Below, piece after piece: positions 48,605-51,688 of a stretch of 64,000 nt of DNA; position 1 is the stretch's first letter; every line of letters starts with the position of its first letter. The stretch comes from an uncultured Parachlamydiaceae bacterium (GTDB lineage: Bacteria > Chlamydiota > Chlamydiia > Chlamydiales > Parachlamydiaceae), in the NCBI GenBank assembly GCA_963742415.1, contig CAVULX010000003.1, forward strand, positions 608,001 through 672,000, read 5' to 3'. The position numbers and the translations under genes are program-made. The notes under the pieces are model-generated. The model ran no database searches, was not told where the DNA came from, and saw only the letters and a program-made list of their open reading frames with translations.

Positions 48605-49804
48605 ATGGAGATGAAGTTATTTACAGCCATGCCTGCTGCTGTAACGTCCGAGGGAAAAGTTCAAATTTCACAGAAATTTGTAGATGGAGTTTGCCAATAC
48701 CTTAAAGATTGGCCTGGAAGAATCACGGTTTTCGCAGAGCCTTCCGATAAGAAAAATCTCTATATGGACACGATTGAAGTCCTTCCGTCGGAATTCCCTT
48801 TTGAAATTCAACTTATCCCTTTTAGCTTCCCTTCTTTAGAAAAGGATTTAGAAAATGGGGATCTTATTGTTTCCCCCATAGAATACAACTTGTTGCATCT
48901 GGTTTCATTAAGCAAAAAGTTGAGTATCCCTCTCATTTACATCACGGAAAATACCTTCAAAACTTTTAGACAGATGCTAAGAGCCACCACTTCGAATCTC
49001 CTCTTAAGATGGAGAAGATTGTTGTGGCTGCATGGGTTAGAAAAACAATTCTCTAAAGCTATAAAAGCCGCCGATGGAATTCAATGCAATGGGCTTCCAA
49101 CCTATGAAATCTATCGCCGCCTCAACCAACATGCCTTACTTTTCTTTGACTCGAGAGTGACTTCATCGTTATTGGCTACGCAAGAGGAAGTGGAAAATCG
49201 CCTGGAGTCATTGTTTACAAATCGCCCTTTAAAATTAGCTTTTACAGGGCGCCTTATCCAGTTAAAAGGGGTAGAGCATCTCATTCCCATTGCTTGCGAA
49301 CTAAAACGGCTCGGCATTAACTTTCATTTAGACATATGTGGAGAAGGGGAGCTTGAAAAACTATTGCAGGAACAGATCTCTTCGCATGGGTTAAATTCCC
49401 TTGTCACATTTAAAGGAAAACTCGATTTCAAAGATCAGCTTATTCCCTATTTAAAGGCTAATGTGGACCTTTTTGTATGCCCTCACGTTCAAGGAGACCC
49501 CTCCTGTACTTACTTGGAAACGATGTCTTGCGGCATTCCTATCGCGGGATACGCTAATGAAGCTTTGGCCGGCCTGGTCCAATATTCCCAAACCGGATGG
49601 ACAACACTCCTGAATAAGCCAAAACTATTAGCGCAAAAAATCGGAGAAATTGCAAAAAATAAAGAGAAAATTAGAGAAGCATCTTTGAGATCTTTAGATT
49701 TTGCTTCCAACTACACTTTTGAAAAAACTTTCAAAGCCCGCGTACAACATTTCTTGCAAGTATTAGACACCTTACGGAAGAGGTCTATTAAAGGGCTGAT
49801 TTGA
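48605..49804 (+). CDS. GT4 (GT-B) glycosyltransferase
   Basis: FTGRLIQLKGVE, ICGEGE, YLETMSCGIP. Confidence 0.88.
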   Translation: MEMKLFTAMPAAVTSEGKVQISQKFVDGVCQYLKDWPGRITVFAEPSDKKNLYMDTIEVLPSEFPFEIQLIPFSFPSLEKDLENGDLIVSPIEYNLLHLVSLSKKLSIPLIYITENTFKTFRQMLRATTSNLLLRWRRLLWLHGLEKQFSKAIKAADGIQCNGLPTYEIYRRLNQHALLFFDSRVTSSLLATQEEVENRLESLFTNRPLKLAFTGRLIQLKGVEHLIPIACELKRLGINFHLDICGEGELEKLLQEQISSHGLNSLVTFKGKLDFKDQLIPYLKANVDLFVCPHVQGDPSCTYLETMSCGIPIAGYANEALAGLVQYSQTGWTTLLNKPKLLAQKIGEIAKNKEKIREASLRSLDFASNYTFEKTFKARVQHFLQVLDTLRKRSIKGLI

Positions 49805-50039
49805 AGTTTTGGTTGGCATAAGTTGAAATAAAGATATCGATCTCCATGGTAGGCTTATCAGTCAGAACATTTAAATTATTTCCACTTTTAACTTCGTAAT
49901 TGAGATCCATTTTTTCAATAATTGATTTAACAAGCTCTATTTTTTTTTCATAATCTGGATTCATATTTTTCACATAAGGAGAAGGTATCCATTTTGAATT
50001 GGGGGAATTGGCGGATTGTATTTCTATTACAAGGATCAT
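49788..50039 (-). CDS. Small hypothetical protein (83 aa), candidate antitoxin/immunity
   Basis: ATG 50039 with a strong AAGGAG Shine-Dalgarno, 17 nt after the synthetase stop codon. Confidence 0.65.
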   Translation of the reverse strand: MILVIEIQSANSPNSKWIPSPYVKNMNPDYEKKIELVKSIIEKMDLNYEVKSGNNLNVLTDKPTMEIDIFISTYANQNFKSAL

Positions 50040-50056
50040 ATATTTCTCCTTAATTT

Positions 50057-51688
50057 TCAAAGTTTACTACTTTTTACACTCGCTTCAATACGTTTTTTAC
50101 GACGAAATTTAGTTACATCATCCACAGCTAATTCTAATTGTTTATTAGCTTTTTGTATAGAATTTAAATTCATCCGCTCAGTTAATGGAATTTTATTTCC
50201 AGTCAAAGAGATTGTTTCTAATATAGCTCCTATTCTTTGAGCTTGTAAAATTTCTTTTGCTTGTTGCTTTGTGGGTTTTAATCCTATAGCTTCTTCTTTA
50301 TAAATAACATTATGATATATATCAGTTACGGTTATGCTAGTTAATGTTACAATTTGTAATTCAAATATAACCCCGGTTTTAAGATCCCTAATTGTACAAG
50401 GAATGGCCTTATACGCACCATCTTTTCGAATTGTCGAATACTTATTATCAAGTTCTAAAAATTCAAAACCATTAGAATTCAATTTGTCAATGACATCATT
50501 TATTTGCTCTGGATTATTGCATGTAATCCTACATCCATTAACGTCAATAATATCTAAAGTCGAGTGGTATTTTGGGATGTCTTGAGCTTGAGTTATGCTT
50601 GTAATACGCCCACATTTATCTAAGATTGATTGAGGCGATTTAGTTCTTGCAGTGATTGTATGCCCTTGAGGACCAAATAGATGAATTAAGCGACCGACAA
50701 CATCAATCAAGTCTTTTTCGTTTTTCTTTTGAAGTTGTGTTAAAGCTTTAAATCCCTCATTAGAAATTCTTACAACGCGATTTCTGGCATCAGGCACTTT
50801 AAGATATGTATAATTCTCATCTTGAAAATTTTTTTTATTTCCCATTTCTTTTGATTTATAATCAGAAGGAAATAAAGCGATACCCCTCTCCTTCTCATTC
50901 GTAGAAAAAGTTAATAGTTTTTCAATATTTTCCGAAGAAATACCTAAGTTTGAGTAATATTGATCATGGAGTTGTCTAATTGATTCGAGTTTAGGTTCTA
51001 CAGTTTTAATTTCAATCACGTTTTTTGCTTTTTCTTTTGCTGTGTACCTGTCAAAGTTAATTTCAATATAGTCATTTAAGAAGTCGTTAAATAGATCGAT
51101 TTTATTTGTAGTAATTGTATCAATAATTTTATTTGAATTGGCTATTGTAACATCATTCAAATTATTTAGAATGTTACCAACATGGGTCGATTTTTCAGGA
51201 TCCCTTAGATATTTTTGTAAATCCATTGGATGGGATTCATCGCAATAGAACTTGTGCATTATGTCTTTTAACGAGGGTTTGTTATAGAAATTTAAGTCAA
51301 CAGACTTTGCACCAACTTCAAAGATCAGTCGATTTTCTAATAAAGCACAAACCTTTGCGCTCTCTGGCTTCTCTTCTGCCACTGTTTCATCTCTTATTCG
51401 CCTTAGTTCTTCAACTGTTTCCTTTGCAATTTGATGGATTTCAGCGATTGAATGTCCCGTTTGAATTTGATCGATGGCTTGAGTTGCAACAGCAGCCATT
51501 TGGACTTGGCAAGAAGTCTTAGTAAGAGAAGATTGTAAAATAGAGTGAAGTTCGGAAGGCCAGCGCGAGGCTGACAGTTGTAAGAATTTATCGACAATGG
51601 TCTTATTAGGGGATACCGCGGGTACGTGGGAAGATCCTGAAGAATAAAAAGATGTTTTAAGATCTCTATCTCTATTAGGAGTAATCAT
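50057..51688 (-). CDS. RelA/SpoT-type synthetase-domain protein (SAS/toxSAS-like) with long N-terminal extension
   Basis: RTKSPQSILDK, DIIDVNGCRI, GAYKAI, FELQIVT, HNVIYK; no HD hydrolase, TGS or ACT domain recognised. Confidence 0.82.
   Translation of the reverse strand: MITPNRDRDLKTSFYSSGSSHVPAVSPNKTIVDKFLQLSASRWPSELHSILQSSLTKTSCQVQMAAVATQAIDQIQTGHSIAEIHQIAKETVEELRRIRDETVAEEKPESAKVCALLENRLIFEVGAKSVDLNFYNKPSLKDIMHKFYCDESHPMDLQKYLRDPEKSTHVGNILNNLNDVTIANSNKIIDTITTNKIDLFNDFLNDYIEINFDRYTAKEKAKNVIEIKTVEPKLESIRQLHDQYYSNLGISSENIEKLLTFSTNEKERGIALFPSDYKSKEMGNKKNFQDENYTYLKVPDARNRVVRISNEGFKALTQLQKKNEKDLIDVVGRLIHLFGPQGHTITARTKSPQSILDKCGRITSITQAQDIPKYHSTLDIIDVNGCRITCNNPEQINDVIDKLNSNGFEFLELDNKYSTIRKDGAYKAIPCTIRDLKTGVIFELQIVTLTSITVTDIYHNVIYKEEAIGLKPTKQQAKEILQAQRIGAILETISLTGNKIPLTERMNLNSIQKANKQLELAVDDVTKFRRKKRIEASVKSSKL

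Follow-up and report, generated by a model that had tools for sequence, protein, structure and literature searches.

A putative RelA/SpoT-type toxin and its dedicated small partner form a horizontally acquired cassette in a Parachlamydiaceae bacterium

Chlamydiae are the textbook phylum without RelA/SpoT enzymes. In the genome of an uncultured Parachlamydiaceae bacterium (assembly GCA_963742415.1) we found a two-gene cassette that encodes a 543-residue protein of the RelA/SpoT homologue (RSH) family and, directly behind it, a protein of 83 residues. The cassette lies within a stretch of 64,000 nucleotides (nt) of contig CAVULX010000003.1 (positions 608,001 to 672,000 of the forward strand), which is referred to here as the window and in which coordinates are counted unless another locus is named. 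The large protein is apparently a catalytically competent pyrophosphokinase, the small protein is its real and dedicated partner, and the cassette is foreign DNA that was acquired horizontally. The core of our explanation, an active RSH toxin and a small partner dedicated to neutralizing it, is probable. If it is right, the RSH family is represented in this branch of the Chlamydiota by a weapon-like enzyme that travels with its own neutralizer and not by a factor of the stringent response. An earlier reading made from the DNA letters (the sequence-only reading) had proposed a toxin-antitoxin (TA) or secreted toxin-immunity module. The domain, the conserved pairing and the co-inheritance on which such a proposal depends have all been borne out; toxicity and neutralization are predicted from them.

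The 543-residue protein has an intact RelA/SpoT synthetase domain

The enzyme gene was called as an open reading frame (ORF) at 50057..51688 on the minus strand, with its TGA stop codon at 50057-50059. All five RelA/SpoT synthetase motifs that the sequence-only reading had picked out are found in its product, in the same order. The profile search with PF04607 (RelA_SpoT) that had been proposed as a check gave a match far beyond chance: residues 348-466 (50291-50647) align to profile positions 2-111 of 113 with an E-value of 1.7e-11 and a score of 44.8 bits (cut-off 27), and a six-frame search of the genome returned the same match. RelA_SpoT is the sole Pfam family above cut-off, the other row being a sub-threshold HisKA_3, and Pfam shows no HD_4, TGS or ACT domain, just as the same reading had it for hydrolase, TGS and ACT. 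Against the NCBIfam RelQ equivalog the protein scores 19.9 bits, where the cut-off is 320.

The synthetase (pyrophosphokinase, SYNTH) domain occupies residues 310-494 (50207..50761, minus strand). In an alignment of 13 family sequences, whose members are 31-50% identical to the window protein, residues R348, K350, S351, D382, G385, R387, Y426, K427, E443, Q445, H459, Y463 and K464 are invariant. Thus the motifs RxKS..K, DxxGxR, the acceptor-stacking Tyr, ExQ and HxxYK are all present and invariant in the family. The roles of the Mg2+ Asp and of the acceptor-stacking Tyr are taken from D90 and Y128 of FaRel2 as an excerpt of the published description gives them. When the family profile was compared with solved structures, the catalytic motifs aligned with those of RelQ and RelP, the best of these matches (E 2.3e-5). 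Most SYNTH domains of the family are basic, with an isoelectric point (pI) of 8-9.7 in 10 of 13.

An AlphaFold2 (AF2) model of the protein, with a mean predicted local distance difference test score (pLDDT) of 83.8 and a predicted template modelling score of 0.82, is disordered over residues 1-28 and helical over 29-260; a small beta unit (270-309) leads to the SYNTH domain (310-494), and a long helix (508-542) forms the C-terminal end. The RelA_SpoT fold, which the sequence-only reading had expected, was recovered by two structure comparisons. Foldseek matched the SYNTH domain to RelQ, RelP and CapRel with probability 1.0 and E-values of 2e-4 to 9e-4. With VIA-align, six RSH chains gave Z-scores of 10.4-11.8 over 162-197 aligned residues; among the scores were CapRel 11.8 (197 residues aligned), RelP 11.6, SAS2 11.5, RelQ 10.9 and the exported Streptomyces small alarmone synthetase (SAS) 8vx3 10.8, and Tas1 scored 7.6. 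The CapRel score is tied with those of the non-toxic RelP and RelQ, and since the top five matches are all tied, structure assigns the enzyme neither to a subfamily nor to a substrate. From its sequence and predicted fold, then, the 543-residue protein is apparently a catalytically competent pyrophosphokinase of the RelA/SpoT type.

The source genome (2.69 Mb in 4 contigs) is estimated to be 84% complete, and at this completeness it has no second RelA_SpoT domain and no HD_4 hydrolase. An unrestrained synthetase would therefore have no known antagonist in the genome.

The enzyme gene and the small gene are inherited together

The small gene (49788..50039, minus strand, from its ATG and with the stop codon included) is co-oriented with the enzyme gene and begins 17 nt after the enzyme stop codon. 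Its ribosome-binding site, AAGGAG at 50046..50051 (minus strand), stands 6 nt before the ATG at 50039. The sequence-only reading had described this arrangement accurately in every part. If translation began at an alternative TTG (50060), the protein would have 90 residues.

The same reading had stated that the idea of a pair should be given up if homologues of the enzyme were never found next to the small gene. They are found there in 5 of 5 other loci: in all five for which downstream DNA was available (L009, L010, L011, L012 and L016; L010 and L015 are the same contig), an ORF of 75-99 residues lies directly behind the enzyme gene. Co-occurrence by genome is equally regular. In a sample of 401 Chlamydiota genomes, drawn evenly across the phylum, strong matches to the small family (E <=1e-19) occur in G000, G128, G145 and G295 only, the very four genomes in which this enzyme family is present (4 of 4). 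Five more enzymes come from contigs whose length (32243, 16139, 5347, 3353 and 6963 nt) is identical to that of a contig from which a small-family protein is recorded; in two of these cases (3353 and 6963 nt) there are two such proteins. No partner from an equal-sized contig was seen for P0004 or P0009-P0012 among the 15 small proteins looked up.

Pairwise identities among the enzymes are correlated with those among their partners (nine pairs; Mantel r 0.51, a value reached in 21 of 5000 permutations), which indicates that the two genes travel together. Small-gene paralogues also flank or follow the enzyme, at L010 (320-589, minus; 2634-2933, plus) and at L011 (7592-7849, plus; 7865-8104, minus). 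In G128, a Rhabdochlamydiaceae metagenome-assembled genome (MAG), insertion-sequence elements have cut the enzyme to 172 residues between two transposase-like genes (L012/L005, 6004-8171), and the gene for its 81-residue partner is intact beyond the insertion. From these observations we conclude that the small protein is a real, dedicated partner of the enzyme.

In one of the five loci, a metagenome contig of 1.9 kb (L016, 69-1632), the enzyme is split into ORFs of 407 and 80 residues by a frameshift or an assembly error, and the partner gene that follows is intact up to the contig end.

The partner belongs to a new family of small proteins

The 83-residue protein, a putative immunity protein or antitoxin, was barely visible to standard searches. 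A word-index search returned only the protein itself, Pfam (CesT included) and NCBIfam gave nothing meaningful, and the ESM Atlas yielded only leads below 0.9, to unnamed clusters. A profile search of 1.84 billion representatives retrieved 30 proteins, 24 of which are small (66-99 residues, the window's own included), with E-values down to 1e-27. The small ORFs of the other loci align end to end around hhVFEV, PSxY and VxVKxGxxLxxLT, and the family is mostly acidic, with a median pI of 5.13.

The remaining 6 of the 30 matches are long proteins, and the one inspected (P0040) is a LysM repeat protein. Weak profile matches in the chlamydial genomes G112, G132 and G208 were likewise recognized as LysM proteins and were dropped together with P0040. 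When the small-family profile was searched against Protein Data Bank (PDB) sequences, LysM repeats were the only matches. The C-terminal half of the small family (residues ~47-80; 49800-49900 in the window, minus strand) resembles the start of a LysM repeat (VxVKxGxxLxxLT...). This stretch accounts for the LysM proteins drawn into the profile searches; the predicted fold is not that of LysM.

An AF2 model built from an alignment of eight sequences (pLDDT 87) predicts a beta-beta-alpha-beta-(short helix)-beta-alpha protein, with strands at residues 2-8, 20-24, 47-53 and 64-66 and helices at 30-43, 56-59 and 67-82. This order of elements is the same as the beta1-beta2-alpha1-beta3-(3-10 helix)-beta4-alpha2 of ATfaRel2, the antitoxin of FaRel2. 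A passage of PMC11782079 describes how the short 3-10 helix of ATfaRel2 bears a YXXY motif that plugs the ATP-donor site. Foldseek placed three ATfaRel2 chains at ranks 5, 6 and 13 (TM 0.43-0.46, E 1.5-2.6). In a search independent of Foldseek, ATfaRel2 ranked 5 of 48,161 chains with a Z-score of 3.7, tied with unrelated chains, and the CapRel antitoxin domain ranked 20 with a Z-score of 3.1. A second-look alignment put ATfaRel2 chains at ranks 1-3 of 147 (Z 3.5-3.9, root-mean-square deviation 3.4, 63-68 of ~74 residues). The small proteins form a new partner family, which may be a relative of the pZFD antitoxins that is no longer recognizable by sequence.

The enzyme family is rare and confined to Chlamydiota

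The sequence-only reading had placed the pair in a lineage without RelA/SpoT, and this view of the lineage holds. An excerpt of Atkinson et al. 2011 (PMC3153485) counts zero RSH in 15 Chlamydiae, and a RelA_SpoT domain was found in only 7 of the 401 sampled genomes. Four of the seven have the family described here, two have a full long RSH and one has a marginal match. The two long RSH proteins, of 563 residues in G022 (L003, G022:C15 790-2478) and 738 residues in G045 (L004, G045:C6 757-2970), carry HD_4, RelA_SpoT, TGS and ACT domains, contrary to the usual view of the phylum; their contigs may be truly chlamydial or may be contaminants. The marginal match is a 377-residue protein of G362 (L008, G362:C36 841-1971, minus strand) that reaches 27.7 bits at profile positions 2-70 of RelA_SpoT. 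No small-family partner accompanies it, and it is perhaps another divergent RSH-like gene of the Chlamydiota.

Across 5.8 billion protein clusters, the enzyme has 11 other full-length matches, which are 35-52% identical to it and all carry PF04607. Every homologue whose record names a taxon is chlamydial: the records are of a Parachlamydiales MAG, a Chlamydiae MAG and a Rhabdochlamydiaceae MAG, and there is in addition an unclassified 'bacterium' MAG (same order). No chlamydial SAS or toxic SAS (toxSAS) family was described in the full-text literature searched; Chlamydiae has 0 occurrences in the main text of Jimmy et al. 2020, whose datasets S1 and S2 may already hold members of the family. 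A rare, Chlamydiota-restricted RSH family with a new architecture, in which a family-specific N-terminal domain is followed by SYNTH, is well supported.

The nearest SYNTH relatives found outside the Chlamydiota are the C-terminal ~160-190 residues of two much longer proteins, one of 1370 residues in Gemmatimonadota and one of 664 residues on a plasmid of Streptomyces antimycoticus (hhalign probability 98.4, with 28% identity across 160 columns). In each case an HD_4 domain of the small-alarmone-hydrolase type comes next. In Gemmatimonadota (L013, L017) HD_4 is fused behind a small N-terminal domain. On the Streptomyces plasmid (NZ_CP108859.1; L022, 1-5411) an overlapping operon encodes an ATP-binding protein, the 664-residue RSH, a 94-residue protein and a 199-residue HD_4 protein. 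The pairing with an HD_4 antidote suggests that the wider clade consists of conflict-type RSH toxins that have a hydrolase as antidote. Going by these sequence comparisons, we propose that the chlamydial branch exchanged the hydrolase antidote for a small binding protein.

The 94-residue Streptomyces protein resembles the N-terminus of the Gemmatimonadota HD_4 protein, and the whole looks like an undescribed conflict system. Kinship between the small proteins of Streptomyces and Gemmatimonadota and the chlamydial small family was considered and rejected (hhalign probability 0.06-0.07).

The two genes form a horizontally acquired cassette

Both genes lie in a low-GC insert of 2.1 kb (49762..51833) with a GC content of 31.7%; that of the window is 42.2% and that of the whole genome 41.7%. 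Along the DNA, GC is ~27-35% across 49.6-51.9 kb and ~40-47% on either side, and GC at third codon positions is 0.233 and 0.298 for the two cassette genes and 0.41-0.43 for their neighbours. The insert is bounded by a 38-nt direct repeat on the plus strand, the left copy at 49724..49761 and the right copy at 51834..51871. The copies are identical at 36 of 38 positions, and the genome holds no further copy.

The left copy is part of the 3' end of a glycosyltransferase gene (48605-49804), and the right copy, read on, gives a displaced alternative 3' end of the same gene. Read through the right copy, the protein would have a tail of 7 residues after HFL.V, as does the sole glycosyltransferase orthologue found (in G010). 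Because the tails are of equal size, the right copy seems to be where the glycosyltransferase gene originally ended, now displaced, which would mean that the incoming DNA supplied a replacement gene end. There is no integrase or transposase gene within the insert. A clean empty site was not found among 40 relatives: the glycosyltransferase orthologue is present in 1 of them (G010), where gene order is different.

The whole enzyme is absent from all 60 relatives searched (36 of the same family and 24 from other families of the same order). In the other genomes that bear the pair, the cassette differs little in GC content from the DNA around it, and each locus has other neighbouring genes. A promoter and terminator scan of the cassette did no better than shuffled sequence. 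We conclude that the cassette of the window is foreign and horizontally acquired.

The N-terminal region, the C-terminal tail and possible export

A conserved, family-specific region of ~310 residues precedes the catalytic domain. The sequence-only reading had likened the protein to stand-alone synthetase domains. The absence of HD, TGS and ACT domains has held; with ~310 extra N-terminal residues, the 543-residue enzyme is neither stand-alone nor small. The larger part of this region is a helical domain at residues 29-260 (50909..51604, minus strand; AF2 helices at 29-258) with a nearly invariant FYxDExHPMDxQ motif (F147, Y148, D150, H153, P154, M155, D156 and Q158). It has no Pfam family and no usable ESM Atlas match; a search with the region gave only P0002, and a structure search gave only generic helical-bundle matches.

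The first 28 residues (51605..51688, minus strand) are predicted to be disordered (pLDDT <50), are rich in Ser, Thr and Pro and differ in length and sequence across the family. The Ser/Thr/Pro-rich character that had been noticed earlier is real: 12 of the first 30 residues are S, T or P, compared with a genome mean of 5.24, and only 1.7% of 1533 ORFs in the genome have 12 or more. The genome also has two FHIPEP export-gate genes. The idea that the enzyme is a substrate of the type III secretion system (T3SS) comes from this disordered, S/T/P-rich N-terminus and the T3SS in the genome.

At the other end, the enzyme terminates in Ser-Lys-Leu (50060..50068, minus strand). The tripeptide -SKL is the prototype of the peroxisomal targeting signal type 1 (PTS1), the import signal of peroxisomes. 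A tail of the form [SA]KL is found in 6 of 14 family proteins, as -SKL in the window protein and as -AKL in five relatives (P0005, P0008, P0010, P0011 and P0012). In the family tree, which is otherwise poorly resolved, these six fall into two subclades or more. In the genome as a whole, 2 of 1845 ORFs of at least 150 residues end in [SA]KL, and one of the two is the enzyme gene. The -SKL of the window protein agrees with the PTS1 consensus (S/A/C)-(K/R/H)-(L/M) as given in an excerpt of PMC11811301, where a PTS1-like tail is also said to work in the Salmonella effector SseI.

A model of the cassette

We infer the toxicity of the enzyme, its direct inhibition by the partner, its substrate, its export and its targeting to peroxisomes in the following form. 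The cassette would be a horizontally acquired toxin-immunity pair. The enzyme would move the beta-gamma pyrophosphate of ATP to the 3'-OH of a nucleotide or of the CCA end of tRNA; with a nucleotide as acceptor, (pp)pApp or (p)ppGpp would be made and ATP would be drained. The 83-residue protein would act as an inhibitor that binds the synthetase domain and silences the enzyme in the producer. The enzyme would then leave through the chlamydial type III system by way of its disordered N-terminus, the small protein staying behind in the bacterium, and it would act in the amoebal host cell, where the -SKL tail may steer it to peroxisomes. Taken as a whole, from cassette toxin and inhibitor through export to the host and peroxisomal targeting, this model is tentative, and we hold it at somewhat less than even confidence.

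Export is favored for several reasons. The enzyme is confined to an obligately intracellular phylum, as are its N-terminal domain and its partner. The toxin domain is C-terminal in a larger protein and is followed by immunity-like genes that are sometimes duplicated. The genome has its two FHIPEP genes, the N-terminus is disordered and S/T/P-rich, and [SA]KL tails are far more frequent in the family than in the genome. Precedents are the PTS1-like tail of SseI and the RelA/SpoT-like domains of T3SS effectors from plant pathogens.

A bolder version of the model is that chlamydia-specific effectors exploit the PTS1 import of the host to place an RSH pyrophosphokinase inside peroxisomes, which we consider unlikely. 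There the enzyme would use up ATP or produce nucleotides resembling (pp)pApp or ppGpp, having been kept off in the bacterium by an ATfaRel2-like small protein until secretion strips that protein away. Such an enzyme would be a bacterial effector bearing a canonical PTS1 and the first of the alarmone type to be directed at an organelle of a eukaryote; alarmone chemistry would thereby be tied to the manipulation of organelles by intracellular bacteria.

Alternative explanations

Several findings weigh against the export model. All characterized pairs of an RSH toxin and a small partner are, to our knowledge, intracellular TA or defense systems or interbacterial weapons, and we know of none directed at a host. 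Disordered S/T/P-rich N-termini are common, so that nothing in them speaks specifically for type III export. P0002-P0004, the closest relatives of the window protein, have no [SA]KL tail, nor do 8 of the 14 family members. The five pairings drawn from equal contig sizes are indirect, as this equality is their entire basis. The structural scores between the small protein and ATfaRel2 are weak and of a size at which unrelated small alpha/beta proteins score equally; moreover, the YXXY motif that ATfaRel2 needs is absent from the 83-residue protein, in which GxxLxxLT is conserved at the equivalent short helix. With these scores and no YXXY, we take a pZFD-like antitoxin as a good lead rather than as a family membership. 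Finally, the Streptomyces operon lies near a gene annotated as an ABC-three component system protein, in what looks like a defense island.

One alternative is an intracellular type II TA or abortive-infection toxSAS module whose enzyme never leaves the bacterium, an explanation that we regard as possible, on the doubtful side. The small protein would keep the enzyme inactive until a trigger such as invasion by a phage or plasmid, or stress, frees it, the 310 N-terminal residues would serve as sensor or regulator, and growth would be arrested by pyrophosphorylation of tRNA or by synthesis of (pp)pApp. Such a module would share all of the core evidence. In structure the enzyme matches CapRel best, the topology of the partner is ATfaRel2-like, and the experimental precedents for an RSH toxin with a small partner are of the TA, defense or interbacterial kind. 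The pair has the patchy, mobile spread of such modules (4 of 401 genomes, varying neighbours, flanking repeats and low GC), G128 has kept the antitoxin of a decayed toxin, and the ATPase-RSH-small protein-HD_4 operon of the Streptomyces plasmid would fit as well. Type II TA modules do occur in Chlamydia-related bacteria, according to part of PMC10880633. An enzyme that stays inside leaves the [SA]KL tails unexplained, however, and gives no reason why searches of 5.8 and 1.84 billion proteins found enzyme, N-terminal domain and partner in Chlamydiota only. The defense-system database PADLOC matches neither protein (its sole row was Cas6b at E 0.013), there is no relative in 50,697 phage records, and the toxin-first order, with extra immunity-like copies downstream or in the flanks, is more typical of loci for secreted toxins. 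If the TA or defense explanation is right after all, the pair would extend the described toxSAS-type modules to an obligate intracellular lineage for the first time.

A different role for the small protein, as a secretion chaperone or a co-secreted regulator (metaeffector) instead of an inhibitor of the active site, would suit a small, mostly acidic protein whose gene comes immediately after that of a candidate effector, the two being strictly co-inherited. We nevertheless think it quite improbable. At 66-99 residues, the family is shorter than the class I T3SS chaperones; the protein matches neither CesT nor any other Pfam family; the structure that it resembles best, if weakly, is that of a toxSAS antitoxin; and duplicated copies are typical of immunity genes. 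Very improbable, in our estimate, is a re-acquired minimal stringent response, in which the enzyme would make alarmones for the physiology of the bacterium itself under allosteric regulation by the small protein. The catalytic residues are intact, and in sequence and fold the enzyme is as near to the housekeeping RelQ and RelP as to toxic enzymes, which is what such a role would require. Against it, a resetting hydrolase was not found in the 84% complete genome, the enzyme occurs in so few of the sampled genomes and in none of the 60 close relatives, the cassette is foreign and of low GC, and the enzyme gene has decayed in G128. In addition, its closest relatives outside the Chlamydiota form the C-terminal ends of giant proteins that are paired with alarmone hydrolases.

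Comparison with known systems

Two features of the toxSAS modules of Jimmy et al. 2020, a synthetase-only domain content and a conserved two-gene arrangement, are found in the chlamydial pair. Its closest counterparts are the translation-targeting toxSAS FaRel2-ATfaRel2 and CapRel (PDB 8pu1-8pu4 and 7ztb), with a pZFD antitoxin or antitoxin domain, in which a synthetase-only RSH is likewise combined with a small (~75 residues) structured partner. Compared with these, the chlamydial enzyme has ~310 additional N-terminal residues, and the partners have no detectable sequence similarity. FaRel2-ATfaRel2 differs further in that the chlamydial family is found in Chlamydiota only, that some of its members have a PTS1-like tail and that the structural Z-score between the partners is <4, which is at noise level.

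Tas1-Tis1, a (pp)pApp synthetase effector delivered by the type VI secretion system (T6SS) of P. aeruginosa and its immunity protein (PDB 6ox6), shares with the chlamydial pair a C-terminal RSH toxin domain and a protective gene directly downstream, and both would act outside the stringent response. Unlike Tas1, the chlamydial enzyme has no PAAR or other T6SS delivery domain in Pfam, and its structural match to Tas1 (Z 7.6; Foldseek E 0.057) is weaker than those to CapRel, RelP and RelQ. No Tis1 chain was among the listed structural matches of the small protein. The sequence-only reading had allowed for either the host or co-infecting bacteria as the target; any target outside the cell would here be the eukaryotic host and not, as for Tas1, a rival bacterium.

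RelA/SpoT-like domains are also found in T3SS effectors of plant pathogens, as part of Zhang et al. 2012 (PMC3482391) reports. With the polymorphic toxins and XopAD discussed there, the chlamydial enzyme would share a C-terminal RSH weapon in a multi-domain protein, an architecture also seen in its Gemmatimonadota and Streptomyces relatives; the XopAD-type effectors are said in the same excerpt to hold two RSH copies, whereas the chlamydial enzyme holds one.

RelQ (YjbM) and RelP (YwaC) have the same catalytic motifs as the chlamydial enzyme and match it with equal structural scores (Z 10.9-11.6). They are stand-alone tetramers of ~200-residue subunits in genomes that have a long RSH hydrolase. 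In contrast, the chlamydial enzyme is greatly extended at its N-terminus, comes with a dedicated partner and is of foreign origin.

Genes flanking the cassette

On one side, the cassette is flanked by genes for exosortase/EpsH, a DUF3485 (EpsI-like) protein and the group-1 glycosyltransferase (46670-49804, plus strand). Genes for MgsA/RarA, shikimate kinase and EPSP synthase lie on the other side. The former three occur together in a chlamydial genome.

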